NCBI RefSeq assembly: GCF_004010195.1
Contig: NC_057753.1
Coordinates: 10,013,679-10,069,423, forward strand
Direction: 5' to 3'
Length of the DNA: 55,745 nucleotides
Origin: Chiloscyllium plagiosum
Lineage: Eukaryota
Shown piece by piece: positions 4,488 through 45,544 of the stretch (position 1 is its first letter; every line of letters begins with the position of its first letter). The notes beneath the pieces are model-generated. The model ran no database searches, was not told the origin of the DNA, and saw nothing but the letters and a program-made list of their open reading frames with translations. Both the position numbers and the translations under genes were made by a program.

Positions 4488-5375
4488 AGAGTCATATAGC
4501 ATGGAAACAGACCCTTCAGTCCAGCACGTCCATACCAACCAGACATCCTAAATTAATCTCGTCTCATTTGCCAGCATTTGGACAGCATCTCTCTAAACCC
4601 TTTCTATTCATGTACTCAGCCAGATGCCTTTTAAATGTTGTAACTGTACCAGCCTCCTCTACTTCCTCTGTTAGTTTGTTCCATACATGCACCACCCTCT
4701 GCATGAAACAAATTGCCTTTCCTCACCCACCTTAAACCTATGCCCCTCTTGTTCTTGATTCCCCTTCCATGGGAACAAACCTTGACTATTCACCCTATTC
4801 ATGCCCCATATAAACATCTAAGGTCACCTCAGCCTCCAATGCTCCAGGGAAAACATCCCTGGCCTACTCAGCCTCTCCCTGTAGCTTAAACTCACCAACT
4901 CCTGAAGAAGGGCTTGTGCCCGAAATGTCGATTCTCCTGTTCCTTGGATGCTGCCTGACTTGCTGCGCTTTTCCAGCAACACATTTTCAACTCTGGCAAC
5001 AGCCTTGTAACTTTTCAGAACCCTTTCAAAGTTTCACAACATCTTTCCTATAGTAGAGAGACCAGAACTGAATACAGTATTCCAGAAGTGACCTCCAGTA
5101 CTGCCTCAACATGACCTCCCAACTCCTATACGCAATCCACTGATCAATAAAAGAAAGCATACCAAACACTTTCTTCACTACCATCTCTACTTGTGACGCC
5201 ACTTTCAAGGAACAATGAACCTACACTTCCTGTCTCTTGGTTCAGGAACACTCCCCAGGATCTGACCATTTAGTGTATAATTCCTGTCCCAATTTGCCTT
5301 TCCAAAATGCAACAGCTCACATTTCTCCAAATTAAACTCCATCTGCTATTCCTCAGCCCATTGGCCTATTAGATA
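4488..5375 (-). mobile_element. CR1 LINE 3' fragment with a nested PLE terminal repeat (4901-4992)
   Basis: LLEYCIQFWSLYYRKDVVKL on the minus strand; CR1 tail at about 4490. Confidence 0.88.
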
Positions 5376-6289
5376 AATTATCATTCGTAGTGAACTCGCT
5401 TTCCTCTCTTATTCCCGAGAAGCTGAAAATCTCTGTCCCACACACTCTCCCTCTATTTTTACTTTGCTGAACCTCATCCTGAAGGGTCTGGATCATGCCG
5501 ATGAACAGGCCCACACTCAGGGGGAACTAATTGAAATATACAGAATACTGAACAGCCTGGCCAGAATGGACATTGGGAAGATGTTTCCACTGGTAGGAGA
5601 GACTAGGACCCGATAGCACAGCCTTAGAGCAAAGTGAAAACCTTTCAGAATGGAGGTAAGGAGAAACTTCATCAGCCTCTCCCTGTGGAATACATTGCCA
5701 CAGAAGGCTGTGGAGGACAAGTCACTGAGGAAGTTTAAAACTGAGATAGATCAGTTCTTGAGTATCAAGAGGATTGAGGGTTACGGGAAGAAAGTGGAAG
5801 AATGGGGTTGAGAAACTCATCAGCCATGATAAAATGATGGAGAGAATAGCATAATTTCTGCTCCTATGTCTTGTGGTCTGTTGATGTCCTGGACACAGTG
5901 TCAGAATTGGGAGCAGGAGTAGGCCATTTGATCTTTCGAGCCTGGACCAGCATTGAACAGATCATAACTGGATATGAATCTACCTCCATCTAGGTGGATA
6001 GGCTGAGACTTTTTCACTGGAAGCAAGTGAGAGCTGCAGATGCTGGAGAGCAGAGTCGAGAGTGCAGTGCTGGAAAAGCACAGCAGGTCAGGGAGCATCT
6101 GAAAAGCAGGAAAATTGACATTTCGGGCATAGTCCTTCATCAGCACTCCTGTCAGTCTATTTTGCCAATTAAGACACAGACCTGGACCAACATTTCCCGA
6201 GTCTACCCCCTCCCTGGATTCGCTCCTTCTCCTTTCGGTTGCTGCAAGTCAACAATTAAACCCCAGAATGAAAAATATATAGAAAAGGG

Positions 6290-6500
6290 GGTGAGAAAAG
6301 AGAGTGTTGTATTCACAGATGTTAGACAGAGGAAGGAAGTTGCAGTCTGGGCTGAAGCTCAATCTTCGTTCTGAGAGAGTGGAGCAGCAGCAGCAGCTTC
6401 AGAAGCTCGTGGTCCACCTACTTTCAGACAGTAGGGAAGCTCTGATTAGCAAGAGGACAAGTCTCCTTCAGGTTCTCCAGTGCTCCTTATTGGTCCATCA
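6290..6500 (-). pseudogene. Decayed copy of the ZNF promoter and non-coding exon 1
   Basis: Reverse complement aligns by eye with 19925-20125 (ggaccacgagcttctgaagctgctgc...gaagattgagcttca...catct|gtgaat); donor GT kept, CpG/CCAAT motifs decayed. Confidence 0.8.
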
Positions 6501-6989
6501 AAAGAAGGTCTTGTGCCTTTTCTGCCGACAGCAAGGTACATGCCCAATGTTTTGGTGACACCACTGAACACGTGCCCTGCAACATGCTCTGTGGCGATAC
6601 TAGTGTTACTGACAGATTTTAAGTGTCCAAATACCAAGAGGAGGAAAAAAAGGTGGAGCCACAATTTTCTTTCCCACATGGCTTGACATTTTATTGTTTT
6701 GGCATTTTGTCTGGCTGCTCAACTTTTTTGTTTTTTCCCCAGTGTCGCGGTGAAGTTCAGAATTAGAGGGCAGAGGTTTAGGTTGAGAATGGAAAGATAT
6801 AAAAGATACCTAAGGGGCAATGTTTCCATGCAGAGTTTGGCGTGTGTATGGAAGGAGCTGCCAGAGGAAGTGGTGGAGGCTGGTGAAATTACAACATTGA
6901 AAAGGCATCTGGATGGGTATGTAACTAGGAAGGGTTTAGAGGGATATGAGCCAAGTGCTGGCAAATGGGACAAGATTAATTTAGGATAT

Positions 6990-7788
6990 CTAGGAGAAAG
7001 TGAGGACTGCAGATGCTGGAGATTAGAGTTGAGCGTGTTGGAAAAGTACAGCAGGTCAGGCAGAATCCGAGGAGCAGGAGAATTTAAATTTTGGTGCATA
7101 AGCCCTTCTTCAGGAATCTTTTCTGAGGATGTAGAAATGCAGATCTGGATTGCAGGTCTGGGAAAATGAGGCTCTGAGGACTGACTGCTGGTAGAGTAGA
7201 TGGCGGCATATGGCTGATAGTGTGGAGTGGAAATCCAGAAAAAGAATCGTTGTTGAAGGTTTCAGATTTGTAGTGTGTACTGGGTATCCTGTGCAGGTCC
7301 AAACTGGGTTGGTCTGAATGTGGGATCAGATGGTTCCGTAGGCAAACACTGAGAAAGAAGATGTGGCTGTGATAGTCAAACTGCTTGTGGATGTGGCTGA
7401 AGAAATTCAGGGCAGAGGAGAGGACTTGGGGGGGGGTTACAGTGAGAGAGGGACTCTCAGATCTTTGTAGACAGAGGAGGAGAACTTCTTCCAGGTAGGC
7501 ATCCATGGAAGAGGCTTCGCAGTAATGTTGAAATCAACTAGGAGAAAGTGAGGACTGCAGATGCTGGGGATCAGATGCGAGAGTGTAGTGCTACAAAAGC
7601 ACAGTAGGTCAGGCAGCTCCGAGGAGCAGGAGAATCGACGTTTCAGGCATAAGCCCTTCATCAGGCGGGCTTATGGCCGAAAGGACTCAAAAGATTCCTG
7701 ATGAAGGGCTTATGTCCGAAACATCAATCCTCCTCCTCCTTGGATGCTGCCTGAGCTGCTGTGTTTTTCCAGCACTACATTGTCAATG
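6990..7788 (-). mobile_element. Penelope-like insertion: inverted partial pLTR + pLTR + 5' ORF fragment + pLTR, flanked by a TSD
   Basis: Repeats at 6990-7115 and 7538-7665 (-) and 7695-7785 (+); ORF 7506->7084; ttaatttaggatatct (6976-6991) vs ttaattttggatatct (7789-7804); inserted in a CR1 tail. Confidence 0.85.
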
Positions 7789-8206
7789 TTAATTTTGGAT
7801 ATCTGGTCGGCATGGACGGGTTGGACCAAAGGGTCTGTACAACTCTATGACTCCAAATAATAAGAAGCATACTTTGACAAATTACAAACTACTGTACATC
7901 CATATTAACAAGACTTAGTACATCACATGCTTTACTAGCCATTCTCAAAAAGTCCTTCAATAATTGAGGAACATATACATGCTGTGCATAATCTCCTTCA
8001 CTAGTATTTACACACTAACCTCAGCAATTGCACAAGTAATAGCACAAGTAAACAGCACAAGGATTTTTTAAAAAGTGAGGGTAAACAGCACAAGGATGAA
8101 TAAAACAGTGAGGGTAAAAAGCAGATGGAAAGTGAGTGTAAAATATCACTATGACAGGACAGGCCCCACATTCCTTCCCCTCCGTCCCCCCCACAACCTG
8201 CCTCAC

Positions 8207-8458
8207 CTTTCACCTCCCGGGCCCAGTACCTTCCAGGTGGCCCCATAGTTGACACAGGGGCCGCCCCACGACCAGTAGAACTCCACCACCCAGGCGGCCG
8301 ACGAGTTCCCAAGCAGGCCCTTAACCCCATCCGCCTCCAGAATGCTCACCGGCTCCTGCCTGCTGTACAGCCGGCCGGTGTGGCCGTGACACAGCAGCTG
8401 CGCCAGGAAGGCGGCGGTGCCCAGTGACGGGTGTCTGCCCCGGGCCGCACGGCGCCAT
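8207..8458 (-). pseudogene. QSOX2: QSOX (sulfhydryl oxidase, QSOX2-like) exon 1 pseudo-exon in a CpG island
   Basis: [50 protein letters not shown](AREVK) matches the QSOX thioredoxin N-terminus; WCGHC has become WGGPC; frameshifts; ends at donor aag|gtgagg; no downstream exons seen. Confidence 0.85.
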
Positions 8459-9436
8459 TTTCCTAACGGCCGCCCTCCCGCCGCTTCCCCGCTCGAGCGA
8501 CTTCTCCTCCCAACCGCCTTCGCCCCCGCGTGACATCTGCACGGGTGGATGGGCGGGGCCGGGGGAGCCTCACCGTCACCAAGCAACAGCCACCTCGCGC
8601 TACAACTGCTCATTCACAAAAACAAACTCTCCTGTCTCGCTCTGCAGCTGCAGGGGGACACTGCTACGTTTTGAGGAGCCCTGTCTACATTGGGAAAGCT
8701 CAGTTCAAAGAGATATTCCGACATATTCGAAATGTCGTCATATCTAAAGGGGGAAATCTGCATTTTAAAGGGACATGGACATTTTAACGGGCTATTTCTG
8801 AAAATAAAGAGATTTAATGGATAAGAGCTCGTGGGTCCACAGTTAAAATGCTTTGAACAACCTTTTTTTTTATTTCCCTGCCTTCCCAGGATATAGAATT
8901 TCTCCCACCAGAAATTGTTTGCCCAGAAAAAAGTCCAGCAGGAATATGATTATGGAGCTATCAATAAAAATGTCTAATTTGGGTCACCCAACGTTATTAA
9001 TGGAAGGACATATCTCTTCAAGGATACAGTTTGATTTGCCCATTCAAAATTCCTTGAATTTAAGGTGTTCCAATTGTAGTTTCAGTTATAATCCATTAAA
9101 AGCAGTATGCAGTCTCATCTGAGTGCAGAACCAACTCAAACTGACTGAACAACCGAAACAACATTTCTGTATGCACTTTAGATGTGACATCCTCTCTCCC
9201 TCTCTCTCTGTTGACCCAACAGCATTACCAGGGCTGGAAGTACCACCCTCGGAATACAATTGCTGATCTATAGTTTGCTTCTCCTGCTGAACATAAGGAT
9301 TTAAAAGCTGCTAGCCTGATCCCGCACAATGCACAAAAACAGACTGTTCACCCATGTCTGCGCAGAGGATAATTTTCACTTGGAATGGATCACAAAATAA
9401 CAACTCTTACCAGTCCCACAACTCATGAGTTTCCCA

Positions 9437-9740: not shown

Positions 9741-10439
9741 GAAAGACTTTAAAATGGCACGAAGGGTACCTTTTTTTTTGCACAGAGTGGTTTGTGTGTG
9801 TCACAAATGTCCAGAAGAAGTGGTGGATGCAGCATTGAAATGACATTTGGATAAATACATGAATAGGAAAGGTTCAGAGGGGCATGGGCCAAACGCAGGC
9901 AGGTGGGACTATTTCGTTTGTGAGTATAGTCAGCACGGACTAGTTGGACTGAAGGGTCTATTTCTGTGCTGTATGACTCTGTAACTGTCCTATACTGGTC
10001 TTAAAATCATTTTCTTGCCTTTCCCCATAAACGTTCACTTATTTGATGTTCAAAAATCAGATGATGCAGCCTTGGATATATTCAATGACCCCCTAACTGC
10101 AGGAAGGCATTCGCACTTTACAGCAGAATTCCTCTTGCCAAAATACCACTTACCTTGCTGATTGCTTGCTGCACCTGTCTGACAACTGGCAGTGACTGGT
10201 GTAGAAGGACGCTGAGGCCCCTTTGTACATTCACACATCATTCCTGAGGAAGGGCTCGTGCCCGAAACGTCGACTCCCCTGCTCCTTGGATGCTGCCTGA
10301 CCTACTGTGTTTTCCCAGCGCCACACTTTGACTCGGATCTCCAGCATCTGCAGTTCTCCCTTTCACCACATCCCAATACATCACGGTTTAAACAATACAC
10401 CTCCTTTCTGCCTTTTTTCACAGCAAAGGCTACAACTTC

Positions 10440-11025
10440 ACATTACGGTACTGCATTTACCATGTGTTTGCAAATTATGGTATTCTCTACATCAGGGAGA
10501 CCGAGCGTAAACTTGGGAATGGTTCGCCGAGCATCGCAGCCGGGTCCGCAGAGACTGACCAGACCTCCCTGTCACCACCCATTTTAATTCTCCTTCCCAT
10601 TCCCTTTCTGACATGACCATCTTTGGCCTCCTCCATTGCCACAACAAACTAAACCGCAACTTGGAGGAACAACACCCCATCTTCCACCTGGGCAGCCTAC
10701 ATCCCAGAGGACTCAACATCGAGTTCCCCAATTTCAAATAACTTCACTTCCCATCCCCCGATTCCCTTCTCAGCCTCGACCCCTCCTTTCCACTCCTCTC
10801 TGCCACCAACCAGATTCCATCCTCCCGTTGGCCAATCAGGTCGTACCCTCCACCTGTCTTCACCTATCCCCACTTCACCATCGTGTTCCCAGCACACCCT
10901 TTCTCTGTATCTCTCCCTGCACCCACCCCTAGTTATGAACAAAGGTTACACCACGATGTCGACTCCTCCACCTCCTGATGTTGCCTGGCTTGCTGTGTTC
11001 TTGCAGCCTCCTGCCTGTCTATTTT
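10440..11025 (+). mobile_element. Penelope GIY-YIG endonuclease 3' end plus terminal repeat
   Basis: ILYIRETERKLG..FAEH, HFNSPSHS, LEEQH..FHLGSL.P.GLNIEF-type remnants; paralogs at 15655-15830 (+) and 31150-31680 (-). Confidence 0.8.
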
Positions 11026-12682
11026 GCCCATTACGACACAGACCTGGAGCAACGTTTCCAGAGTCTGTCTCCTCCCATACTCACTCCCTTTCCTTTCAGT
11101 TTTTTCCAGACATCGATGAATGTGCCCAGTGTTTTGCTGACATCGGCAGGCATGTGTAATACGCTTTTTGGGGATGCGGGTGTTTATTAATACATTTTAA
11201 ATGTCCAAATACCAATAGGGAAACCATTGACTGTCAGGTTCCTTTTAAATCTCTCTCCTCTCACCTTAAAGAAATATGTCCCCTGGCCTTGAGCTCATTT
11301 TAAAACCCCCTAGTTTTATGCTAAGGAAGAACCCTTTGCTATTCACCTTACCTCCACTCCTCATGATTTTATAAATCTCAATGAGGTCACCCGTCAGCCT
11401 CCTTCACTCCAGTGAAAGAAGTCCCAACCTCTCTTTAAAAAAAAAAGTACCTGATCCCTCACCCCCCCCATGTCTCTCTGTTTTACAACAGAACCCAGGG
11501 CCCTACCATTAACTGTCCATGTCCTGCCCTTCCTTGTTTTCACAAAACGCAAGCCCTTGTTTTTATCCATACCTCTCTCATACACACGCTCTCTCTCAGA
11601 CACACAGACATACTCCCCCCAACACACTCGCAGGCTTATACTCCATCACACTCACAATTTACCTGCACGCACACAATCTTACATGCACACACTCACATTC
11701 TCTCATGAATGCACACACATAACTCTATGGGGTGAATTTGTATTGGCAGGATCATTCTTGCAGATACATTCAATTTTGCTCAAAGAGCACACAAACTGCA
11801 GGCAGTCAATCCATGTAATATTTTATAAATTCCTACTTTGGAAATAGAACCAGTCTGATTCAAGATTGGGATACTGAGACTCGAACCTCACACCTTTAAA
11901 GCATTGTCTGAACTGAGATGTCACCTATTTTTTATAAAACTTTAAGTCATCTCGAGAATGTGATTTAAAAGATTTATATTAATGAACCAAAACCTGCAAC
12001 CCATCCTAAAAGATGAAAGAGTTAACAGCAATCTAGGTTTGTTCAATATACCCTATCAGTTGCATGACACTGATCTTTTGCTATGAAATCTGTGTCTTAT
12101 TACCCTGGTCCACAGCTACCCGATGAAGGTGCAGCACTCCAAAAGTGAGTGCTTCCAAATAAACCTGTTGGACTATAACCTGGTGTTGGGAGATTTTTAA
12201 CTTTATCCACCCCAGTCCAATACCGGCTCCTCCACATCATATCTCGTGAACACAGCCCACACCGTTCATTACACTTTACAATGCCAATGAAATGACTCAC
12301 TCTGCACTCCTGAAAAATTCCCAATTTCTCAAGATACTAGCTACTCATTCACTGCTCCATTTGATATGCAACATTGGAAACTTAGTGCAGCAGCCTGAAA
12401 GAAATGAGCAGCTTTAAAAATTAAAACTCTTGGAGCTCAAAGCTTTCAATGAGAATCTGAGCCCGGCAGTAAGTTCGGGTAACCTTTATTGTGACCCAGC
12501 TTTGTCACAGCTTCAGAGCCCCACCCCAGCAAAAAAGCGTAGAAAAAGGAACTGCTTTTTAAACCGTTCAAAGCACACACACTCTCCACCCATCCCACCC
12601 CACCTTCTTTACTGTTTGTCACCACCAAGTTGTCCCTTTGTAACTGGATCCTTGGTACAGTGTAACTCGAAGGAAGGCCGCC

Positions 12683-13216
12683 TACTTGTGGAACGTTTCA
12701 GAGAACACCTCTGGGACACCCGGACCAACCAACCCAACCACCCAGTGGCTCAACACTTCAACTCCCCCTCCCACTCCTCCAAGGACATGCAGGTCCTTGG
12801 ACTCCTCCATCGCCAGACCATAGCAACACGACGGCTGGAGGAAGAGCGCCTCCTCTTCCGCTGAGGAACCCTCAACCACAAGGGATGAACTCCTATTTCT
12901 CCAGTTTCCTCATTTCCTCTCCCCCCACCTTGTCTCCTTTCTAACCTGCAATCTTCTTCCTGACCTCTCCGCCCCCACCCCCACTCCGGCCTATCACCCT
13001 CACCTTAACCTCCGTCCACCTATCGCATTTCCAACGCCCCTCCTCCCTACCTTTTATCTTAGCCTGCTTGGCACACTTTCCTCATTCCTGAAGAAGAGCT
13101 CATGCCCGAAACGTCGATTCTCCTGCTCCTTGGATGCTGCCTGACCTGCTGCGCTTTTCCAGCAACACATTTTCAGCTCTGATCTCCAGCATCTGCAGTC
13201 CTCACTTTCTCCTCGA
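12683..13216 (+). mobile_element. Penelope GIY-YIG C-terminus plus full terminal repeat with hammerhead core
   Basis: ERFREHL...HPVAQHFNSPSHSSKDMQVLGL...RRLEEERLLFR; ctgaagaagagctcatgcccgaaacgtc at 13088-13115. Confidence 0.88.
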
Positions 13217-13449
13217 AGGAAGTATTGCCTCACTCAGCAAAAAGAAATTGTCAATTCAGGGTGCAATGCAGCTTCTTGATGAACAACCAGCAACGAAATG
13301 GTTAACGTCCCCAGGAAGGTGGGAGAAAAATGAAACATCAAGACATTAACACCAACACACTTCAGTCAAACATTTCTGCTCCCAGTAAGGGCAAAACATC
13401 CTGAAACTCCAGTCTTCACCATCAGATTTCTGCTTTCATAGAAGACGAT

Positions 13450-14140: not shown

Positions 14141-15440
14141 ATCAATTCTAATTTATAGTGAACTCTATTTTTCCTCTCTTGTTCCCTAGAATTTGAAAAT
14201 CTCCATCAGTTTGCTCAGCCTAATCCTTCCTGTACCACAATCTGAAGGGTCTGCTTCATGCTGGTTAACAGGTCCACACTTGGTGGGAGAGGGGTGTTCT
14301 AATTGAAACAAACAATACTGAATCCTGAACAGCGTGGACGTTGGGAAGATGTTTCCATTAGTTGGAGAGACTAGAACCAGTGGGCACAGCCTTAGAGTAA
14401 AGGGAAGACCTTTCAGAATGGTGGTGAGTGGTGAATCTATGGAATTCACTGCCACAGAAGGCTGTGGAGGCCTGGTCATTGAGGATATTTATGACTAAGA
14501 TGGAGACTTTGAGTATCAAGGGGATAGAGGGTTACAGGGACAAAGTGAGAGAATGGGGTTGAGAAACCTATCAACCATTATTAAATGGTGGAACAGGCCC
14601 GATGGGCTGAATGGCCTAATTTCTGCTCCTATGTCCTATGGTCTCTTGCTGTCCTGGACACAGAGTGTGAGAATTGGAAGCAGGAGTAAGCTATTTGATC
14701 TTTCAAGCCTGCACCAGCATTCAACAGATCATAACTGGATATGAATCTGCCAACATCTACGTGGATAGGCTGGGACATTTTCACTGGAACATAAGAGGCT
14801 GAGAGTTGACCTTACAGAAGTTTATAACATCACAAGGGACATAGCTGAGTTGACCGCCGGGTATCCTTTCCCTAGGGTGGGGGTTTCAAGATTAGGCAGC
14901 AAATTTGAAGGTGAGAAGAGAAAGATTTTAAAAAGGCATGAAGGCTATCTTTTGTTTTATACACAGAGAGTAGTTTGTGTGTGGAATGAACATCCAGAGG
15001 AAGTGGTGGATGCAGGTACAGTTACAATGTTTAAAAGGCATTTGGATAAGTACATGAATAGGAAAGGTTTGGAGGGGCATGGGCCAAACACAGGCAGCTG
15101 TGACTAGTTTAGTTTGTGAGTATAGTCAGCACGGACTAGTTGGACTGAAGGGTCTGTTTCTGTGCTGTATGACTCTGTAACTGTCCTATACTGGTCTTAA
15201 AAACATTTTCTTGCCTTTCCCCATAAATGTTCACTTATTTGATGTTCAAAAATCAGATGAATGCAGCCTTGGATATATTCAATGACGCCCTAACTGCAGG
15301 AAGGCATTCGCACTTTACAGCAGAATTCCTCTTGCCAAAATACCACTTGCCTTGCTGATCGCTTGCTGCATCTGTCTGACAACTGGCAGTGACTGGTGTA
15401 GAAGGACACTGAGGCCCCTTTGTACATCCACGCATCATTC

Positions 15441-15468
15441 CTGATGAAGGGCTCGTGCCCGAAACGTC
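15441..15468 (+). ncRNA. Minimal hammerhead ribozyme core in PLE terminal repeat (best-preserved copy)
   Basis: CTGATGA-agggctcgtgccc (stem II gggc/gccc)-GAAAC-GTC; palindromic ACGT minimal stem III. Confidence 0.7.
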
Positions 15469-16046
15469 GACTCTCCTGCTTCTTGGATGCAGCTTGACCT
15501 GCTGTGCTTTTCCAATGCCACACTTTGACTCAGATCTCCAGCATCTGCAGTTCTCCCTTTCACCACATCCCAATACATCACGGTTTAAACAATACACCTC
15601 CTTTCTGCCTTTTTTCACAGCAAAGGCTATAACTTCACATTACGGTACTGCATTTGCCATGTGTTTGCAAATTGTGGTATTCTCTACATCGGGGAGACCG
15701 AGCGTAAACTTGGGAACGGTTCGCCGAGCATCGCAGCTGGGTCCGCAGAGGCTGACCAGACCTCCCCAGTCACCACCCATTTTAATTCCCCTTCCCACTC
15801 CCTTTCTGACATGACCATCTTTGGCCTGGACCAACGTTTCCAGAGTCTGTCCCCTCCCGTATTCACTCCCTTTCCTTTCAGTTTTTTCCAGACATTGATG
15901 AATATGCCCAGTGTTTTGCTGACATCGGCAGGCATGTGTAATACGCTTTTTGGGGATGCGGGTGTTTATTAATACATTTTAAATGTCCAAATGCCAATAG
16001 GGAAAAAAGGGTACAGCCACAATTGTTTTATTGCTTTTGCATTTTA

Positions 16047-17610
16047 AGACCATTCGGCCCATCGAGTCCACTCCGCCATTCAATCATGGCTGATAGGCAT
16101 TTCAACTCCACTTACCCGCATTCTCCCCGTAGCCCTTAATTCCTTGTGATATCAAGAATTTATCAATCTCTGCCTTGAAGACATTTAGCGTCCCAGCCTC
16201 CACTGCACTCTGTGGCAATGAATTCCACAGGCCCACCACTCTCAGGCTGAAGAAATGTCTCCACATTTCTGTTCTGAATTTACCCCCTCTAATTCTAAGG
16301 CTGTGTCCACGGGTCCTAGTCTCCTCGCCTAACAGAAACAATTTCCTAGCGTCCACCCTCTCCAAGCCATGTATTATCTTGTAAGTTTCTATTAGATCTC
16401 CCCTTAATCTTCTAAACTCCAATGAATACAATCCCAGGATCCTCAGCCGTTCCTCATATGTTAGACCTACCATTCCAGGGATCATCCGTGTGAATCTCCG
16501 CTGGACACGATCCAGTGCCAGTATGTCCTTCCTGAGGTGTGGGAACCAAAACTGGACACAGTACTCCAAAAATGGAGCCTAACCAGAGCTTTATAAAGTC
16601 TCAGTAGCACAACAGTGCTTTTATATTCCAACCCTCTTGAGATAAATGACAACATTGCATTCGCTTTCTTAATCACAGAGGAGAAAGTGAGGTCTGCAGA
16701 TGCTGGAGATCAAAGTTGAAACTTTATTGCTGGAACAGCACAGCAGGTCAGGNNNNNNNNNNNNNNNNNNNNNNNNNNNNNNNNNNNNNNNNCCTCTCCA
16801 CTTCCTCAGTACTACCTGCCTGTCAACCTAACTTTGTATCATCGGGAAACTTCGCTAGAATGCCCCCAGTCCCTTCATCGAGATCATTAATATATAATGT
16901 GAACAACTGTGGCCCCAACACTGAACCCTGCGGGACACCGCTTGTCACCGGCTGCCATTCCGAAAAAGAACCTTTTATCCCAACTCTCTGCCTTCTGTCA
17001 GACAGCCAATCCTCAATCCATACCAGTAGCTCACCTCGAACACCATGGGCCCTTACCTTGCTCAGCAGCCTCCCGTGTGGCACCTTATCAAATGCCTTTT
17101 GGAAGTCCAGGGAGACCACATCCACTGGGTTTTCCCGGTCTAATCTACTTGTCACCTCTTCAAAGAAATCCAACAGGTTTGTCAGGCACGATCTCCCCTT
17201 ACTAAATCCATGTTGACTTGTTCTAATCTGACCCTGCTCTTCCAAGAATTTAGAAACCTCATCCTTAATGATGGATTCTAGAATTTTACCAACAACTGAG
17301 GTTAGGCTAATTGGCCTATAATTTTCCATCTTTTGTCTTGATCCTTTCTTGAACAAGGGGATTACAACAGCGATCTTCCAATCATCCGGGACTTTCCCTG
17401 ACTCCAGTGACTTTTGAAAGATCTTAACCAACACCTCCGCTATTTCCTCAGCCACCTCCCTCAGAACTCGAGGATGTAGCCCATTGGGGCCAGGAGATTT
17501 ATCAATGTTAAGACCTTTTTAGCTTTTCTCGCACTTTCTCTTTTGTAATGGCAACCATACTCAACTTCGCCCCCTGACTCCTTTTAATTGTTGGGATATT
17601 ACTCATGTTT
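16047..17610 (-). mobile_element. Relatively young CR1 LINE ORF2 (RT) fragment, interrupted by a PLE repeat and a gap at 16678-16792
   Basis: Long open frames: [59 protein letters not shown]. Confidence 0.95.
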
Positions 17611-19078: not shown

Positions 19079-19774
19079 TTGTACATATGGAATGATCTGC
19101 AGAGGAAGTGGTGGAGGCTGGTACAATTACAATATTTAAAAGGCATCTGGATGGGTGAATGAATTAGGAAGGATTTACAGGGATATGGGCCAAGTGTCGG
19201 TAAATGGGACTAGATTTATCCAGGTTAACTGGTCAGCATGAACGAGTTAGACTGAGGGGTCTGTTCCCATGCTGGACATCTCTATGACTCTGTCCAATGC
19301 CCACTTACCATCCCCTTCAATAACAGCATAATTGGAAGTATATGACATGGCTACAACACATAATTACAACAATTAATTATAAACGAACGTGAGAAAACCA
19401 CGAAGAGCACGTTGAATGTTTAACAATTTAATAACACTGGACAAATCTCTGACCCTTTTCACGTTCCAGTCTTGATAAATGCCATGAGGATCAGAAAGCC
19501 TTAACAGAGAGCGAATCTGAAACCCCTTCACTTGCATTCACCCTCTCTGCCGCCAGTTGGTACAAGTGTACAGTGCCTTCCCCATTCTCTCTCCCTCCCA
19601 GGATGAGGAATAGAAAGGGGGAGATATTGCTTTGCTCGCAGATGTTGCCCAGAGTTGGGGGTATCAGTCTGAAATTGATGGGAGACTGGATCAGTGGTGC
19701 TGGAAGACCACAGCAGTGCAGGCAGCATCCAAGGAGCAGCGAAATCGACCTTTCGGGCAAAAGTCCTTCATCAG

Positions 19775-19995
19775 GGCTACTTCCGCATTGTGACGTCCAC
19801 ATTCGGGGGCGGGACGTCCGGAGGGAGCTAGCCGATGACGATCCCGTGTTCCAAGCTAGTTCTCTCCTATTGGCCACGCTCCATGACGTCACACAGGTCA
19901 ACAGTGAGCCAATTGGAATCGCTGGATGACCGGAAGGAGACTGGTCCGCCTGCCAATCAGAACCGCCCCCTATTGTCTGAATGCGGAAGTTGGAC
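19775..19995 (+). promoter_or_regulatory. CpG-rich promoter of the first ZNF gene
   Basis: GC box 19805-19814, CRE TGACGTCA 19884-19891, CCAAT/ATTGG at 19869, 19909 and 19953, ETS CCGGAAG 19930 and GCGGAAGT 19983. Confidence 0.7.
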
Positions 19996-30088: not shown

Positions 30089-33000
30089 GTGAGGCAGGTT
30101 GTGGGGGGGACGGAGGGGGAGGAATGTGGGGCCTATCCTGTCATAGTGACATTTTACACTCACTTTCCATCTGCTTTTACTGGGGCTTGTGCTTTTTACC
30201 CTTTTTAAAAACTTCTTGTGCTTTTTACCCTCACTTTTTAAAATCATTATTTTTTTTAACCCTTGCTGTTACTTGTGCAATTGCTGAGGTTTGTGTGTAA
30301 ATACTAATGAAGGAAATTATGCACCAGCATGTATATGTTCCTCAGTCGTTGAAGAGGCGGGACTTATTGAGAATGGTTAGTAAAGCATATGGTGTACTAA
30401 GCCTTGTTAACTTGGATATAGTTTGTTATTTGTCAAAATATACTTCCTATTATTTAGAGTCGTCAGAGTTGTACGGCACAGAAACAGACACCTTTGGTCT
30501 AACCTGTCCATGTCGACCAGATATCCTAAATTAATCTCGTCCCATTTTCCAGCACTTGGCTCATATCCTTCCCACCCAGATCCTTTTAAGTGCTGTAATT
30601 GTACCAGCCTCCACCACTTCCTCTGGCAGCTCTTTCCATACACGCACCACCACCATAAGGTACCTTTTATATCTTTCTGCTCTCACCCTACACCTATGCC
30701 TTCCCCTACACTGGAGAAAAGTCAAAAAAGTTGAGCAGCCAGACAAGTTGGAAAAGCAATAAAATATCGAGCCATATGGGGAAAACAATTGTGGCTGTAT
30801 CCTTTTTTTCTCCTATTGGCATTTGGACACTTAAAATCTGTCAATAATACCAGCAGCATCACTGAGCATATTATATGCGTTCCTGTGTCAAGCACGGCGC
30901 ATGTTCACCGGTGTCACCAAACCATTGCGCGTGTCCCTCGCTGTCGACAGAAAAAGCGTGAGACTTTCTTTTTATTGATCAAGAGTACGACACTCTCATT
31001 TCTCATTCCCTTTTCCATTTATTTTTCATTGTGATGTTCGATTGTTGACTTGCTGCAACTGAAAGGAAAGGGAGTGAATCCAGGGAGGGGGCAGACTTGG
31101 GAAAAGTTGGGCTAGGTCTGTGACTCAATTGGCAAAATGGACAGTCAGGAGGCTGGAAGATCGCAGCAAGTCAGGCAGCATCAGGAGGTCAAGAAGTCAG
31201 CGTTTTGGGTGTCACCCTTGTTCAGGACGGGATGGGTGAGAGCTGCAGAACAAGGATGTGCTGGGGGCAGGGTGGTGAATTGGGGATAGGTGGGGACAGG
31301 TAAAGGGTACAACCTGGTTGGTTAATGGAAGGAAGGAATCTGGTTGGTGGAAGCAGGGAGGGGCTGGGAAGGGATTCAAGGGGTGGGGAGGGAGGGAGGT
31401 TGTTTGAAATTGGTGAACTCAATGTTGAGTCCTCCAGGCTATAGGCCGCCAAGGTGGAAGATGTGTTGTTCCTCCAATTTGCAGGTTGGATCGTTGTGGC
31501 AATGGAGGAGGTCAAAGATGGTCATGTCAGAGAGGGAGTGGGAAGGGGAATTAAAATGGGTGGTGACTGGGAGGTCTGGTCAGCCTTTGCGGCCCCGGCT
31601 GTGGACTGTTCCCCAAATTTATGCTCGGTCTCCCCAATGTAGAGAAGACCACAGTTGGCAAACACATGGCAAATACAGTACCCCAATGTGAAGTTAGAGC
31701 TTTTGCTGTGTAACAAAAAAAGCAGAAAGGAGGTGCATTGTTTAAATGTTGATATACTGTTTTTGGGATATGGAGAAAGTGAGGACAGCAGATGCTGGAG
31801 ATCAGATTTGAAAAGTGTGGTGCTGGAAAAGCACAGCAGGTCAGACAGCATTCCAGGAGCAGGAGAGTTGACATTTTGGGCACGAGCCTTTCATGTGTGG
31901 ATGTACAAAGAGGCCTCAGCGTCCTTCCTCACCAGTCAATGCCAGTTGTCAGGTGCAGCGAGCAATGAGTAGTGCAAGTGGTTATATTAGCAAGAGGAAT
32001 TGAGTTCAGAAGTGCAGATTTCTTCCTGCAGTTAAGGGGTCATTGAATATATTGTGATTTTTGAACAACAAAGAAGTGGATGTTTATTGGGGGGGGAAGG
32101 TGAGAAAATGTGTCTGGGCATTCATTCCACACACAAACCACACTCTCTTTTTTCTTAAAAAAAATGCTGCCTCAAGTCTTTCTAAAATCTTTCTCTCTTC
32201 ACCTTCAAAATTTGCTGCCTAATCTTAAAATCTCCACCCGAGGGCAATGACACCTGCCGTTCACCTCCTGTATCCCCCTCATGATTTTATACAACCTCTA
32301 AGGTTACCTCTCAACCTCCTGTGCTCCAGTGAGAAAAGTCACAGTCTATCTACCAAGATGTAGGTAGATTAATACCCAGTTATGATGTGTTCAATGCTGG
32401 TGCAGGCTCGAAAGACAAATGGCCTACTCCTGCTCCCAATTCTGACATTCTGTGCCCAGGACAGCAAAAGACCATCAGACATAGGTGCAGAAATTAGGCC
32501 GTTCAGCCCATCAGGTCTGTTCATACCACACAATCGTGGCTGATAAGTTTCTCAATCCCATTCTTTCACTTTCTCACTGTACCCCTCAATCCCCTTGATA
32601 CTCAAGAACCGATCTATCACAGTCTTCAATATCCTCAGTGACCTGGCCTCCACAGCTGTCTATGGCAAGGAATTCCATAGATTCACCACTCTCTGGCTGA
32701 AGACGTTTCTCCTCTCCGTTCTAAAAGGTCTTCCCTTTACTCTAAGGATGTGCCCTCGGCTCCTTGTCTCTCCTACCAATGAAAACATCTTCCCAATGTC
32801 CACTCTGTCCCAGCTGGTCAGTATTTTGACCCTTCAGGATGAGGTACAGGAGGGATTTGGTTCAGCAAAGTGAAAACGGAGGGGGAGTGTGTGGTATGGA
32901 GATTTTCAGCTTCTAGGGAATAAGAGAGCAAAGAGAGTTCGCTATAAATTAGAATTTTTGGGATGGGCAATAGGTTGAGGAGTGTCCGATAGAGTTTAAT

Positions 33001-38843: not shown

Positions 38844-39038
38844 CTAGGAGAAAGTGAGGACTGCAGATGCTGGAGATCAGAGCTGAAAACATGTTGCTGG
38901 AAAAGCGCAGCAGGTCAGGCAGCATCCCAGGAGCAGGATTCCTGAAGAAGGGCTCTTGCCCGAAACGTCAATTCTCCTGCTCCTTGGATGCTGCCTGACC
39001 TGCTGCGCTTTTCCAGCAACACATTTTCAACTCTGATC
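38844..39038. mobile_element. Inverted pair of PLE terminal repeats with hammerhead core (38942-38969)
   Basis: ctaggagaaagtgagg... arm followed by its reverse complement. Confidence 0.85.
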
Positions 39039-39039: not shown

Positions 39040-40060
39040 TTTAAGTCCCTTTTATTTCTTTCCCCTCTCATCCTAAATGTATGCCATCTAGTTCTAAACT
39101 CCCCCCAACTCAGGGAAAAGACCTTGTCTGTTTATCCTATCAATGCCCCTCATGATTTTATAAACCTCTATAAGGTCACCTCTCAGCCTCTGACGCTCCA
39201 GGGAAAACAACAACAACCTATTCAGCTTCTCCCAATAGCTCAAATCCTCCAACCCTGGCAATGTCCTTCTAAATCTTTTCTGAACCCTTTCAAGTTTCAC
39301 AACAAACTTTTGACAGGAAGGAGACCAGAACTGCACATACTATTCCAAAAGTGGTCTAACCAATGCCCTGTACAGCTGCAACATCATCTCCCAACTTCCA
39401 TACTTGATACTGTGACCAATAAAGGAAAGCATTCCAAACTCCGCCTTCGCTATCCTATGTACCTGTGACTACTTTCAAGGATCTATGAACCTGCACTCCA
39501 AGGTCTCTTTGTTCAGCAACACTCCCTTGGATCATTAAGTGTATAAGTCCTCCTCTGATCTGCTTTTCCAAAATGCAGTGCCTCATATGTATCTAAATTA
39601 AACTCCATCTGCCACTTCTCAGCCCATTGGCCCATCTGATAAAGATCCTGTTGTCCTCTGATCTACGCAACTTCGCTGTGCACTACACCTCCAATTTTGA
39701 TGTCATCTGCAAATTTAGTAACTATACCTCATATATTGACATCCACAGCATTTATATAAATGACGAAAAGTAGTGGACCCAGCACCCATCCTTGTCACAG
39801 GCCTCCAGTCTGAAAAGCAACTCTCTACCACCACCCTCTGTCTTCCTACCTGTGAGCTGGTTCTGTATCCAAATGACGAGTTCTGCCTGTATTCCATGAT
39901 GTCTAACCTTGCTAACCAGTCTCCCTTGGGGAAGGCTTTTGCCTGAAACGTCGATTTTACTGCTCCTCGGATGCTGCCTGAACTGCTGTGCTTTTCCAGC
40001 ACCACAAATCCAGAATCTTGGGGAATCTTGTCAAATGCCTCACTGAAATCTATATAGTAC
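39040..40060 (-). mobile_element. CR1 LINE ORF2 3' fragment
   Basis: IDFSEAFDKIP, QFWSP..KLERVQKRF..LRGDLIEVYKIM; small PLE repeat nested at about 39930-40015. Confidence 0.9.
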
Positions 40061-40611: not shown

Positions 40612-41117
40612 CTGCTATGAGTCCAGAGATGGGTGAGTCCATGGGTCTGCCGTTGATTTGTTCATATATTTGGTTGTTGAATTCACCACAAAGGTAGTGT
40701 GGCTAGTCCTTTGGGTTGTGGCATGTCCTCATTCTGTTGTCTTTCCCTTAGGTATCTGTTGATGAAATTGCGGGGGTATCTGTTTTTGGCGAATACATTG
40801 TATAGGTGTTCTTCTTCCTCTTTTTGCAGTTCTGGTGTACTGCAATGTGTTGTGGCCCTTTTGAACAGTGTCTTGATGTAACTTTTGTGTGTTGGGATGG
40901 TTTAGGACTTGGTCTGTGTGTGTGGCTTTCCTGTATACCTTTGTGGTGAATTCAACAACCAAATATAGGAACAAATCAACGGCACACCCATGGGCTCACC
41001 CATCTCTGGACTCATAGCAGAAGCGGTAATGCAAAGGTTAGAGCAAACAGTCTTACCGCAAATTCAACCTAAACTCTGGGTCAGATATGTAGATGATACC
41101 TTTGTAATCATTAAAAA
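40612..41117. mobile_element. Rearranged Penelope RT fragment with internal inversion
   Basis: QINGTPMGSPISGLIAEAVMQRLE...WVRYVDDTFVI (+); about 40615-40696 is the reverse complement of about 40936-41025. Confidence 0.88.
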
Positions 41118-41576
41118 GTCGAACCGCGCCCACTACATGCGGGGAGACGTCACGTTCTGGGCACCTAACCCCTTGTGCATGTGCAGTGTAGGTCATGTAG
41201 GGGACAAAGGCAGTGTTACTGAGTGTGAGAGGAATGGCACCAGCGGCTTAAGAAACAAAAACAGAAACCCCTGGAAAAGCTGAGCAGCCCTGGCTGCATG
41301 TGTCAAGAGAATCCGAGGAAACGTTACGGGTCCAGTGATCCTCCTTCAGAACAGAAATAGGCTTCGGAAACATCCCGGGGAGGTCGCCAGGCCTGAGCGC
41401 CCGGGGAGAGGAGACAGTGAGACAGGGGAGGATTGGAAATCGCGGGAGGAGGGAGACTGGGGAGTTTATAAATTCCTTGGGGAGGCCGGAGGCTGCGAAT
41501 AAAAGCTCCACAGGCCCAGTGTTTACTTTGTTTGGGGAAGGACCTCTGGGGGCAACCGGTCGCCATATTCGTGAGG
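41118..41576 (+). promoter_or_regulatory. Candidate promoter/first exon of the second ZNF gene
   Basis: CpG-enriched; ACTACA and GACGTCA motifs; donor agg|gtaaga at 41577. Confidence 0.45.
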
Positions 41577-41699
41577 GTAAGATGCATGTTGTCTTGGGGT
41601 GAGGAGCGCGGGCATCCATCTTGGTGAGGGCACCATCAACTGTCATTTCTGGGAGAGATTTCCAACTTTGTGGCAGCCTTTGTGTCAACTAGAATTTTC

Positions 41700-42445: not shown

Positions 42446-43499
42446 ATTATATTTCAACAATCTTCCAATTTTAAACACATTCATCACAGTCCTCCCAGAG
42501 GATTAAACTGTTCTCTCTCATTAGAGATGGCTGGTGGTGGTTTATCTTGAGGGTCACCACACCTCAGCCGAGGGGAAAGGCTGAGAAGGAGATCCTCACA
42601 TTTCTCCAACTTGGGTGATATATAATGTAAAGCACCTTGGTATAACATTTTAACAAAAGTATCATCAGTATTAGCTGCTGCTGTAGCTGTCTTTTTTGGC
42701 AAGACTCGTACGTCGAGTGAAACAATTTTAGCAAGAAGTTGGCAGCTGGCAGAGGTCCCCAATCTAATGCCAAAAAAGTGAATGCTTTTTTGGGTGAAAG
42801 AAATTGGCAAAGAAAAAAATAATTTAAAAAGTATCATGTACCTTTAGAAAGGGTGGAAGGGTTGATCTTTGAAAATAAATGAAAACAACATTTATGAAGT
42901 GGAGCAACTGGATCCAGTTTCAACAAATTAAATTAACAACGCAAGTTTCTTTTCACATAACTGCACTACCGCAAATTTCTGTATTGCGGGAAAATGTTAT
43001 GTACTAAAATATGTTCTTATTTTGTAAAGAGTCAGGTCAATAGGTTTAATTTTGTAAACCGTGATCAATAAGATCTTGATTTATACAGCATCTATGTGAG
43101 ATACACTGGTAGTTAATATTTGATTGAATAAGTCTCCACTGACCACCACAAGAACAAAGTTTTTCCCTATCTGAACTGTCAGAAAAGATGTGCTTTCTTC
43201 ACAAATTTTGAGTTCCTGATATGTTTGTCTGTCTTGCAATATTTGATTTTAAAATATGTAATTTGCAGTGAAAATGAATTATTTGTGTTTTTTTCATGTT
43301 GATTTTAAGGTACACTGATCAGAAACTATGTAGGTATTTAGGCCGTCTAAAAATAGAATGCTTTTCATACTCAAAGTTGCTGTGCAAACAAAACCTGTGG
43401 TGTCAATACATGCAACCACTGTCTTTCACTCCTTTTTTTTTGGAAATCATTGGGAATTTAGCACCTCACACTACTGCAGCAGAATCTGAGCACGTTACA

Positions 43500-44068
43500 T
43501 CGGAGTACTGAGGTCATGTTGCAGTTGTATAAGACTCTGGTGCGGCCGCATCTGGAGTATTGTGTGCAGTTTTGGTCGCCATACTATAGGAAGGATGTGG
43601 AGGCACTGGAACGGGTGCAGAGGAGGTTTACCAGGATGTTGCCTGGTATGGTAGAAAGATCGTATGAGGAAAAACTGAGGCATTTGGGGTTGTTTTCATT
43701 GGAGAAAAGAAGGTTTAGGAGTGACTTGATAGAGGTGTATAAGATGATTCGGGGTTTAGATAGGGTCGACAGTGAGAATCTTTTTCCACGTATGGAGTCA
43801 GCTATTACAAGGGGGCATAGCTTTAAATTAAGGGGGGGTAGGTATAGGACAGATGTTAGGGGTAGGTTCTTTACTCAGCGAGTCGTGAGTTCATGGAATG
43901 CCCTGCCAGTAGCAGTGGTGGACTCTCCCTCATTATGGGCATTTAAGCGGGCATTGGATAGGCATATGGAGGATAGTGGGCTAGTGTAGGTTAGGTGGGC
44001 TTGGATCGGCGCAACATCGAGGGCCGAAGGGCCTGTACTGCGCTGTATTCTTCTATGTTCTATGTTCC
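43500..44068 (+). mobile_element. Young 5'-truncated CR1 LINE 3' end
   Basis: Uninterrupted ORF2 C-terminus 43516-43989 (LYKTLVRPHLEYCVQFWSP) and (ttctatg)n tail. Confidence 0.93.
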
Positions 44069-45340
44069 CATCAGGATGCTATAACAAAACTCAACCTAAT
44101 TTGGGATGTTGGGGAAAGTGCAAAATAAATGATTCACTAGTATATACCCTGTGGTTAAAGAGCGCTACAACAGTATTGTACAGACATGTCAGCTGTCTTG
44201 GTGAGACCTAACTTTACTCTGCAACACCTTGATTGGCTCGAGTTGTTGCTGACTGCTTGTAAAACGAAACATTGTGAAGTAAAGACAGTTTCAGTTGTAA
44301 AACTGTCTTATTTGGCCTTCAGCAGTCACACCTAAACTAATACCATATATTTTGCTGCTTATTTTGATTTAACTTGATGATATGTAACCTCAGTTGCTAA
44401 ACAACTCTCAGTGGAGCCTCAAGCGTTATTTGACATCCAACACAAAAGCCAACTTCTTCCAAGTGTTGCTGACTGCAAAAAAACATACAAAAGCTTTTAT
44501 CAACTCCCGGATCGATTTACCACAAGAAATAGGAGTATTGGCCATTCAGCTATTCGATTCTGCTCCACCATTCAGTGAGATCATGTCTGATCTGATAACC
44601 CTCAATTCCATTTTCCTGCCTTTTCCCCAAAACCCTTGATTCCCTACTGATCTTCCTTTGACACCATCACTTTTTCAGAAGGTTAACTTATCTAGAACTT
44701 TGAAGACTGAGACACTTGGACACACAGTACCAACATCAATCCTTGTTAATTGTCCCTGCTTCTGTACTACAGAAAATTGTTTTCTGGATCTTTGTTTGAG
44801 TCTACAAATTGCTCAATAAGATCAAACAATCCTCTTCTGCTCTTCTACTGAGCCAATATCTCTGACAGCTCCATTTCAATGAAACTGAGAAAGCTTCCTA
44901 TCACTTTTGGTTGCAGCCGATAGGGCCAGGATAAAAGATGATTCTCGTTTTCCTAAATACTTGGAATAGGTTCAATTGATTTTAAACAAATGAGTTCTGA
45001 CACATGTTTGGGTTCATATGAGAAGTTTAGCAGAATTGATTTCTCAGATGGGACAATGAAACTTCCTTAGATTGTTTCCACTATTGGAGGTCTACCTCCA
45101 GTTCTTGTTCTTAACACATTATAATGATCTTCTTAACTAGTTTTATTTCATTATATCCATCCCTTCAAACAAATGGCTGTACCATTGACTTACTTCCCAT
45201 AAATAAATTCATCCATCTCCAGCACATTCTAGGTGATATTTTTCCTTAAATTCCATTAAAACGTCCTATCTCTTTCCTTAAATCTATGCCCCCCTAGTTG
45301 CTGAAGCCCTCCACCAAGGGGAAAAGGTTCTTCCTATCTA

Positions 45341-45544
45341 GAGGAGAAAGTGAGGTCTGCAGATGCTGGAGATCAAAGTTGAAACTTTATTGCTGGAACA
45401 GCACAGCAGGTCAGGCAGCATCCAGGGAACAGGAGATTCGACGTTTCGGGCACAGGCCTGAAGAAGGGCCTGTGCCCGAAACGTCGAATCTCCTGTTCCC
45501 TGGATGCTGCCTGACCTGCTGTGCTGTTCCAGCAATAAAGTTTC
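45341..45544. mobile_element. Palindromic PLE terminal-repeat insertion with hammerhead core (45458-45485) and TSD
   Basis: Perfect inverted arms; ttcttcctatctaga at 45328-45342 and 45542-45556. Confidence 0.9.

Follow-up and report, generated by a model that had tools for sequence, protein, structure and literature searches.

Minimal hammerhead motifs of type I in the terminal repeats of a Penelope-like element from a carpet-shark-like genome

Remnants of a Penelope-like element along the window

The window, the whole stretch of 55,745 nucleotides that was analysed, holds about 18 insertion remnants of the terminal-repeat (pLTR) end of a Penelope-like element (PLE), some of them recopied by segmental duplication: solo units, head-to-head pairs, one 3'-end fragment with a GIY-YIG remnant and one internally deleted element. 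The ten hammerhead cores listed by the first-pass annotation were all found in the sequence, on the plus strand at 4902, 7698, 10244, 13088, 15441, 38942 and 45458 and on the minus strand at 6117-6143, 7637-7664 and 19747-19774, and every one of them heads a repeat unit of about 130 bp, in shark-like DNA. Most of these units are without coding sequence, as had been claimed. The five decayed copies are present as well: that at about 7090 lies on the minus strand, with C3 at 7113 and the GAAA lost, that at about 31200 belongs to a sister family (minus, C3 at 31225), and those at 31870, 39930 and 50516 lack part of CUGANGA.

The C-terminal remnant of a PLE GIY-YIG endonuclease (12586..12885, +), with one in-frame stop, matches P0078 by tblastn (67% over 100 aa, E 1.5e-37; a 64-aa piece gives 89%/75% to P0078/P0079) and ends about 200 nt upstream of the core at 13088, on the same strand. 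Many related DNA contigs and RNA reads align to the PLE 3' UTR between endonuclease remnant and hammerhead (12886..13082, +), a stretch not common to the upstream side of other window copies. This UTR leads into the reference unit (13083..13213, +; core 13088-13115, predicted cut after 13115), a 3' pLTR end with tail, where a private G>A at 13097 breaks stem II; the family reads have G there in about 90% or more. The relative P0079 has GIY-YIG and RVT_1 matches, both under the Pfam cut-off, and a C-x4-C-x2-C linker whose corresponding part is absent from the window, which holds remnants only; a CX2-5CxxC linker between reverse transcriptase (RT) and endonuclease is a motif of EN+ PLEs of the Neptune/Nematis type (PMC8557442). 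Pfam found 0 families in six raw PLE remnants near units or at 3051-4007. No full-length element occurs in the window, and unit, RT and endonuclease were not seen together in one intact copy. The first five plus copies, regularly spaced at 2.4-2.8 kb, were considered as PLE tandems and ruled out, there being no full ORF between them and part of the spacing being segmental duplication.

The internally deleted PLE is a composite insertion (6976..7804, -) made of an inverted unit, a unit, an ORF start and a further unit, and bounded by 16-nt target duplications at 6976-6991 and 7789-7804 (1 mismatch, score 13; a score of 12 is reached by about 0.1% of 1898 random pairs). In its downstream unit (6990..7117, -; C3 at 7113) the GAAA box and stem II/III are destroyed. 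After it comes a frameshifted ORF piece with codons 1-136 (7119..7502, -), its ATG at 7502 standing at +162 from C3, and then the upstream unit (7538..7665, -; core 7637-7664), which runs into the ORF start, keeps one stem I pair and is buried in a hairpin with the inverted tail-less unit (7684..7786, +; core 7698-7725). The latter has lost the palindrome and the 1.1 pair and shows the same ORF-to-unit junction as the 7113 copy, with common upstream letters. The ORF piece matches carpet-shark proteins P0081-P0085 (tblastn, E to 9e-18), and the DNA loose ends behind the unit begin with the same letters as its continuation; on such sequence matches it is taken as the N-terminus of the PLE ORF. 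The link from this ORF to the RT is weak (P0083 against P0054, E 8.6e-4): a profile comparison with RT-bearing PLE proteins gave no match, and a search for longer fused forms found no RT fusion among 3 matches.

Two units have intact cores, at 10239..10368 (+; core 10244-10271; stem II of 4 bp, palindrome, stem I of 2 bp, mismatch and 1 bp) and at 15436..15565 (+; core 15441-15468), the latter a segmental duplicate of the former. The first is followed 3' by a GIY-YIG remnant of a sister PLE family (10448..10789, +; tblastn to P0078/P0079, E 4e-14 and 9e-15) and then by a decayed hammerhead unit of sister family B (10932..11030, +; nhmmer E 1.2e-18 to the 31225 copy); the second is followed by a GIY-YIG remnant at 15646-15837. 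In the third paralogue (31772..31894, -), with a GIY-YIG remnant at 31454-31684, the 5' core box is deleted. The 31225 copy itself is a decayed family B unit (31151..31225, -).

Solo units include one without tail inside a LINE-derived repeat (4901..4995, +; core 4902-4929), with a stem III that is wobble and not palindromic and a 6-nt flanking repeat not above chance; one with tail (6016..6143, -; core 6117-6143), with a stem II mismatch, a 1-nt deletion and no stem I; and one without tail (19694..19775, -; core 19747-19774), with a stem II mismatch and the palindrome lost. A tail-less unit at 39930..40013 (+) starts at +5, without CUGANGA, and has a 9-nt flanking repeat; a decayed unit with tail (50517..50634, +) has broken core boxes, and a strongly decayed 3' piece has no core (55109..55191, -; nhmmer E 6.4e-6). 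The 3' piece at 16677..16752 (-), cut by an assembly gap (N run), is identical at 76/76 positions to 45340-45415.

Two head-to-head pairs stand apart from the composite. In that at 38844..39038 the minus arm has the tail and starts from +33, the plus arm is tail-less (core 38942-38969, pair 1.1/2.1 lost), and the arms, 60/64 identical, are predicted to form a long hairpin. The pair at 45341..45544 is very young: the minus arm has the tail and starts from +9, the plus arm holds the core 45458-45485, the arms are 78/78 identical, and an exact 15-nt target duplication (a match of 20 nt with 1 mismatch) is present. Its perfect hairpin (-188 kcal/mol, z -22) buries the core and would more likely be a source of dsRNA than a ribozyme.

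Occurrence, conservation and fold of the core

The pattern CTGANGA-N8-24-GAAAYGTC has 8 strict matches in the window against 0.04 expected, a number reached by 0/100 shuffles, and a stem-II-aware descriptor finds 7 zero-mismatch matches, with 0 in each of 30 shuffles. Further CTGANGA...GAAA matches at 7123, 26091, 26273, 50488, 17635, 5675 and 5356 failed this descriptor. An Rfam scan of the window gave no hammerhead family match; five weak matches to miRNA families on inverted pairs lie far below the gathering score and are taken as hairpin artefacts. The CUGANGA and GAAA boxes and a UH cleavage site (GUC/AUC) are kept in 10/11 parsed cores, 7113 being the exception, and all core features are intact in only 2/11, at 10244 and 15441. 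The copies are not all independent, because 10244, 15441 and 31897 are copies of a single locus that was duplicated together with the sequence around it (92% over 910 nt; 77% over 1117 nt).

The first-pass annotation held that N7 and the stem II loop vary while the core boxes are kept. The variation is clear, with N7 differing in 6/11 cells and loop II in 15/52 (14 copies, two paralogues excluded). The keeping of the boxes is modest only: in the same copies 3/142 cells differ there and 70/681 in the downstream sequence, and a shortage of substitutions in the boxes appears when all are counted (p=0.03), with no significant deficit of private ones in the core relative to elsewhere (p=0.23). Broken boxes at the 5' side are, moreover, cut off by the local alignment and go uncounted in these figures.

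An extra A between A9 and G10.1 is found in 14/14 cells. Stem II is 92.5% paired, its closing pair being G-C in 9/10 copies, and the G10.1-C11.1 pair is kept, as in the min-HHR type. A palindromic 15.2/16.2 without loop 3, that is, a stem III of the dimer type, appears in the consensus and in 6/10 copies, with 2 wobble and 2 broken. Stem I pairing, whose absence from the consensus had been named beforehand as a refutation, is half there: two contiguous pairs, a U-U or U-C mismatch and then one pair, with 54% of cells paired over 5 positions, both inner pairs kept in 4/10 copies and a predicted pairing probability of <=0.02 in the copies folded. For 10244/15441 the stem III duplex is predicted at only -3.1 kcal/mol. 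Lunse et al. have reportedly studied the cleavage of hammerhead dimers. Compensatory changes within the family amount to 0/110 cells; with the sister families added they reach 5/162, as high as in 90/500 shuffles, families B and C being partly misaligned. Four copies sit inside long hairpins, and most copies are predicted to be unable to fold as a ribozyme.

It is unlikely that the motif is a degenerate relic, or a protein or promoter signal resembling a ribozyme, rather than a ribozyme in the shark family. The marginal stem I, the nil within-family covariation and the Rfam result would suit such a signal, as would the hammerhead mutants of the lizard element, without effect on insertion in vitro according to the main text of PMC11167929. 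However, the consensus keeps all invariant boxes while N7 and loop II vary, the boxes also persist in sister families whose stems differ (in B, stem II C-G becomes U-A in 2 copies; a family-C copy has GC in place of the CG palindrome, judged by eye), and the position agrees with that of tested PLE ribozymes (PMC11167929, main text).

Judged by their sequence, the motifs of the window are minimal type I hammerheads in Penelope-like terminal repeats, and this part of the first-pass annotation stands on the GIY-YIG remnant upstream of 13088, the tail, the inverted arrangement and the features given in the main text of Cervera & De la Pena 2014 (PMC4209133), who described min-HHR in pLTRs of metazoan PLEs. 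These share with the shark units a type I core without loop 3, the palindromic 15.2/16.2, the place in the pLTR, the extra base after A9 and G10.1-C11.1; in both, most copies are single, dispersed and truncated, and some form opposite-strand pairs 100-700 bp apart. The host differs, since that text names bony fishes, coelacanth, Xenopus and reptiles. Moreover, stem II has 4 bp in the shark unit and 7-8 in the Schistosoma motifs, and stem I, with 2 contiguous pairs, is shorter than the 4-5 bp of Schistosoma and resembles the 2-bp D. virilis variant; stem I measures 2-5 bp in published families of PLE minimal hammerheads.

Ends of the copies and RNA evidence

The 3' ends of the copies fall at two points about 30 nt apart, +76..+96 from C3 in 6/16 copies and +121..+126 in 10/16. 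The repeat unit is the pLTR, and the stretch between its two 3' end points is the PLE tail, described as 30-40 bp, at one end only, together with an inverted 5'-truncated copy adjoining the pLTR (PMC8557442). In all 3 inverted pairs (3/3) only one arm reaches the far 3' end. At the 5' side, the start lies within -5..+5 of C3 in 13/16 copies (10/13 independent events) and at the cut site (+28) in 0/16, the nearest start being +33; as starts lie at the ribozyme edge and never at the cut site, the RNA that was copied would have been uncleaved. Target duplications of 15-16 nt, beyond the 99.9th percentile of random pairs, were seen in 2/8 insertions tested; the other 6/8 show no clear one.

The RNA evidence comes from a single sample, amounting to about 2% of a poly(A) single-cell run, from an organism in which 60% of the sequence words occur. 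The RNA-seq ends at the cut site proposed as a check were not seen in it: there was no pile of molecule ends or starts and no strand step, the unit being present on both strands with a ratio of 1.44/1.38/1.48 across the site. Joints or end piles were likewise absent from this poly(A) run, which would miss circles. At -4, 214 RNA reads leave the unit family into mixed flanks, and read depth over the unit far exceeds that over the 3' UTR, both in this RNA run and in two DNA runs.

That depth and the missing coding sequence are what non-autonomous, retrozyme-type elements would show, with dimer self-cleavage, circularisation and a spreading cycle of their own, as had been suggested earlier; we consider this quite improbable. 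Non-LTR retrozymes (Cervera & De la Pena 2020, PMC7229834; Li et al. 2026, bioRxiv 10.64898/2026.07.22.740005) are likewise short, mostly non-coding type I hammerhead repeats derived from pLTRs; according to the 2026 preprint, animal retrozymes descend from pLTRs and were detected in one chondrichthyan. Monomers are described as derivatives. Retrozymes, however, are tandem arrays of at least 2 hammerhead units, mostly canonical, with circular RNAs, none of which was found for the shark units, and a canonical retrozyme hammerhead has a 6-bp stem I and loop 1-loop 2 contacts, against <=2 contiguous pairs here. The composite 6976-7804 does hold two same-strand units 551 nt apart, and its inverted arm carries the deletion junction of the 7113 copy, so that the deleted form was probably the template; but this closest pair flanks an ORF remnant and its core at 7113 is dead. 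Same-strand neighbours elsewhere are >=970 nt apart, the core lies in 0/9 tandem-repeat (TRF) rows at a period limit of 500, and the sole hint of a head-to-tail form is a 'goes back 139' joint in one contig. No copy starts at the cut site, and the RNA run shows no ends there.

Cleavage of host transcripts, for which some copies (best 10244 and 15441, with every core feature kept, 5197 nt apart on one strand) would be retained, was also proposed and is very improbable: the overall rarity of substitutions in the boxes is matched by no deficit of private ones, the two copies are 92%-identical duplicates whose third paralogue has lost its core, the stem I and stem III predictions are poor, the RNA run has no strand step, and published PLE motifs cleave poorly (PMC4209133) or only with the element's protein (PMC11167929), as the main texts have it.

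Copying of the element and the place of the hammerhead

The motifs are very probably minimal type I hammerheads in the pLTR of an endonuclease-bearing PLE family, copied from uncleaved RNA and then left to neutral decay. The closest experimental counterpart is the Poseidon element of Anolis (PAc), as described in the main text of Frangieh et al. 2024 (PMC11167929): the encoded protein attaches to the RNA immediately downstream of the pLTR and nicks DNA, and reverse transcription begins inside the transcript, from either of two adjacent sites and with uncleaved RNA as template. This start lies 111-118 nt into an ORF beginning at stem II, which we calculate from its figures as about +120 from C3. 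The hammerhead, as tested, cleaves only with the element's protein. In both PAc and the shark family the copies' 3' end lies about 120 nt downstream of the hammerhead, the tail is defined by two 3' ends, RNA-seq shows no ends at the cut site and the RNA that is copied is uncleaved. They differ in that the matching shark ORF begins at +162 and that the relative P0079 has a Neptune/Nematis-type cysteine linker, unlike PAc.

In the shark family, an internal RT start at two sites would account for the two 3' ends as well as for the inverted pairs and target duplications. Selection would maintain the core in those source elements that are active, and its cleavage there is probably weak and takes place either in dimers or assisted by the element protein. 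Inserted copies would decay neutrally as passengers in host RNA, on both strands.

More tentatively, the excess of ~130-bp units may consist of run-off cDNAs: the transcript would start a few bases upstream of the hammerhead, and RT from +95 or +125, starting internally in the first pLTR, would run off at the RNA's 5' end. This reading, not found in the literature searched (main texts), is suggested because 13/16 copies start within -5..+5 of C3, none at +28, and 214 RNA reads leave at -4. The sharp 5' boundary may also come from RT stalling, or from an endonuclease cut or a joint by microhomology at the ATT that directly precedes the core.

As found, the shark family adds to the class described in 2014, and its copies are mostly inert, so that the finding is of little consequence. 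What PLE hammerheads do is still described as unclear (PMC8557442). If the run-off reading were true, thousands of genomic copies would record where transcription starts, the two sites at which RT begins and the copying of uncleaved RNA only, and the hammerhead would act as a brake by destroying templates, not as a maturation step. The sharp 5' boundary, with no starts at the cut site, makes it possible to test cheaply, on the scale of a genome, whether RNA that has been cleaved ever serves as template.

Hammerhead cores and their folding

All ten hammerhead cores listed by the first-pass annotation were found at their positions, and each stands at the head of the same unit of about 130 bp. 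The strict core pattern has 8 matches in the window against 0.04 expected, and a motif scan of the kind proposed there, with a stem-aware descriptor, gave 7 exact matches against 0 in 30 shuffles; an Rfam scan of the window gave no hammerhead match. A search using just the repeat sequence outside the core recovered 19 matches, 18 to the main family and 1 to a sister family. Copies 10244, 15441 and 31897 (named by core position) are a single locus duplicated together with its flanks.

The proposal that N7 and loop II vary while the boxes are kept was borne out: counted against the majority in 14 copies, with two paralogues excluded, differing cells amount to 6/11 at N7 and 15/52 in loop II against 3/142 in the core, the last figure being biased towards the core because the broken 5' boxes of 31897, 39930 and 50516 lie outside the aligned part. 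Downstream of the core, 70/681 cells deviate. On the multiple alignment the core substitution deficit has p=0.03 for all substitutions and p=0.23 for private ones. This is consistent with the source elements being under constraint and the inserted copies decaying neutrally.

Features given in PMC4209133 for metazoan minimal hammerheads of Penelope-like elements (PLEs) recur in the unit consensus: the two boxes, one additional base following A9, the G10.1-C11.1 pair and a loop-less palindromic stem III. The consensus forms a weak stem I, in which C-G and U-A are followed by a mismatch (U-U or U-C) and then A-U, with 54% of cells paired across five positions. The covariation check found 0 compensatory changes in 110 cells within the family, and adding the sister families gave a few double changes, no more than shuffles give. 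The full feature set (boxes, four Watson-Crick stem II pairs, palindrome, both inner stem I pairs) is kept in 2/11 cores examined, 10244 and 15441, followed by 4902, with a wobble in stem III. Predicted stem I probability is <=0.02 in 8/8 copies folded in context, and the stem III self-duplex has -3.1 kcal/mol. Long predicted hairpins with inverted partners contain copies 7664, 7698, 38942 and 45458; an inverted (opposite-strand) partner cannot act as the second ribozyme of a dimer within one transcript.

Element identity and genomic setting

The assignment of the units to Penelope terminal repeats (pLTRs), already made in the first pass, is supported by a GIY-YIG remnant near 13088, a two-ended tail and inverted pairs. 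The remnant (12586-12885) sits about 200 nt upstream of the 13088 copy, at 67% to protein P0078. Its relative P0079 has RT and GIY-YIG matches, both under the Pfam cut-off, and a C-x4-C-x2-C linker; such a cysteine motif is ascribed to Neptune elements in the part of PMC8557442 consulted. In the following numbering C3 of the CUGANGA box is 0 and the predicted cut lies between +27 and +28. The 3' ends of 16 copies fall at +76..+96 (6/16) or +121..+126 (10/16), and three head-to-head pairs each have one long and one short arm, matching the tail and inverted pLTR described for PLEs in the same portion of PMC8557442. Target duplications are clear in 2/8 insertions tested (15-16 nt) and of 9 nt in one, with nothing above chance in 5/8.

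A sister-family GIY-YIG remnant comes after each of the paralogues 10244, 15441 and 31897, and in two cases the tract finishes with a decayed hammerhead belonging to the sister family itself (10932, 31225). A third family, absent from the first-pass list, has two decayed copies, at 9364-9583 (-) and 12056-12226 (+), with hammerhead-like cores near 9523 and 12120; they have their own stem II and stem III palindrome, and core positions are lost in both.

The segment 6976-7804 is a single insertion composed of an inverted unit, a second unit, a frameshifted ORF start of 384 nt and a further unit. Since the junction left by the deletion in the 7113 copy recurs in the inverted arm, we infer that copying of the internally deleted form probably took place in trans. 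Five carpet-shark proteins match the ORF start over their first 136 residues; the similarity of an ORF-start protein to one bearing RT is weak (E 8.6e-4), and the RT tie was not confirmed by profile comparison or a search for fused forms. Beyond the unit, DNA contigs carry on with the same sequence as the ORF-start continuation. The shark gene models P0081-P0085, which carry the names 'mucin-2-like' or 'uncharacterized', apparently represent the N-terminus of the unit-bearing element's ORF, and the same segment is present in P0087, a model named prostatic acid phosphatase-like.

The window consists of vertebrate DNA rich in repeats. Its retroelement remnants have their best protein matches in Chiloscyllium, Hemiscyllium, Stegostoma, Rhincodon and other sharks, so that the DNA can be described as carpet-shark-like. 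At least two other Penelope-like families have left RT remnants, none adjacent to the hammerhead unit, at 3153-4027 (+), 40909-41217 (+) and 47621-48544 (-). Retrovirus-like protease and RT pieces occupy 36730-38401 (+) in several frames with stops and frameshifts, and the inverted pair 38844-39038 lies directly downstream. Perfect 78-bp palindrome arms at 45381-45544, together with a 100% identical piece at 16677-16752 that stops at an assembly gap, point from their sequence to a very young subfamily; hairpins of the former type may disrupt assemblies. A 182-bp tandem duplication at 26067-26435 (97% identity) is possibly an assembly artefact.

Old segmental duplications, direct and inverted (4988-8827, 9739-11223, 13784-16005, 29496-33267; 72-96% identity), cover about one third of the window. 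A duplicated GC-rich exon-like piece, at 8203-8613 (-) and 29763-30092 (+), closes with a segment resembling thioredoxin (Pfam E 0.02 in the 29763 copy), whose CxxC reads W-G-G-P-C in both copies, and presumably resembles the first exon of QSOX sulfhydryl oxidase. An exon encoding about 11-12 C2H2 zinc fingers is intact at 21033-22082 (+), and a second zinc-finger-like exon, interrupted by an assembly gap, lies at 50764-51400 (+).

Copy ends, transcripts and mode of copying

In the Anolis element, as described in PMC11167929, RT starts internally at two tail-defining sites some 120 nt 3' of the hammerhead core, the ribozyme needs the element's protein for cleavage, ribozyme mutants insert normally, and RNA-seq reveals no termini at the cleavage site. 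The window copies are anatomically a close fit to that model, and RT in the shark family would likewise start internally at two neighbouring sites. With 16752 (cut by a gap) and 55134 (too decayed) excluded, 13/16 copies lose their match to the family at -5..+5; one runs into the 3' UTR, one starts at +9 and one at +33, and 0/16 start at the cut site (+28). When paralogues and a shared junction are merged, 10/13 events have their 5' limit at -5..+5. The position of these limits at the ribozyme edge, with none at +28, indicates that the RNA being copied had not been cut at the site, or had been rejoined there.

Transcription starting at the ribozyme's 5' edge, followed by run-off synthesis, would yield the excess of short units. 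The D. virilis Penelope also has an internal promoter in its pLTR, although, in the passages of PMC2377424 seen, farther upstream of the hammerhead than the start proposed here. The 5' limits may equally well stem not from run-off but from cleavage or joining at the ATT that precedes the core; the Anolis enzyme prefers ATT (PMC11167929).

Four of 24 listed sequencing runs were mapped to 12700-13300 at 80% likeness. In two contig sets unit depth is several- to about 20-fold higher than that of the 3' UTR, which is not a copy number. The RNA data come from about 2% of one poly(A) single-cell run (4198 reads mapped; none in a second run). The unit is present on both strands, with strand ratios of 1.44 ahead of the cut site, 1.38 across it and 1.48 beyond it, and among the matches listed there is no position where many molecules begin or end. 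Loose read ends accumulate at -4 (214 reads, mixed flanks), +80 and +123..+125; a further pile, at +15, probably reflects broken alignments where the 13088 copy has substitutions of its own. This pattern argues against bulk cleavage in one sample, possibly from another species, poly(A) libraries being blind to circles and cyclic-phosphate ends.

Non-LTR retrozymes are described, in the sections available of PMC7229834 and bioRxiv 10.64898/2026.07.22.740005, as tandem arrays with mostly canonical hammerheads and circular RNAs; the earlier reading of the units as retrozyme-type elements is not supported, since no tandem array contains the unit and the sole close same-strand pair includes a dead core, and the suggested cleavage of host transcripts is unsupported apart from two intact-looking duplicates (10244, 15441). 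The literature search found no report on shark Penelope hammerheads or shark Neptune elements, and the supplementary material to the papers of 2014 and 2026 may include shark motifs. The shark unit adds one family to the already described class of PLE minimal hammerheads.
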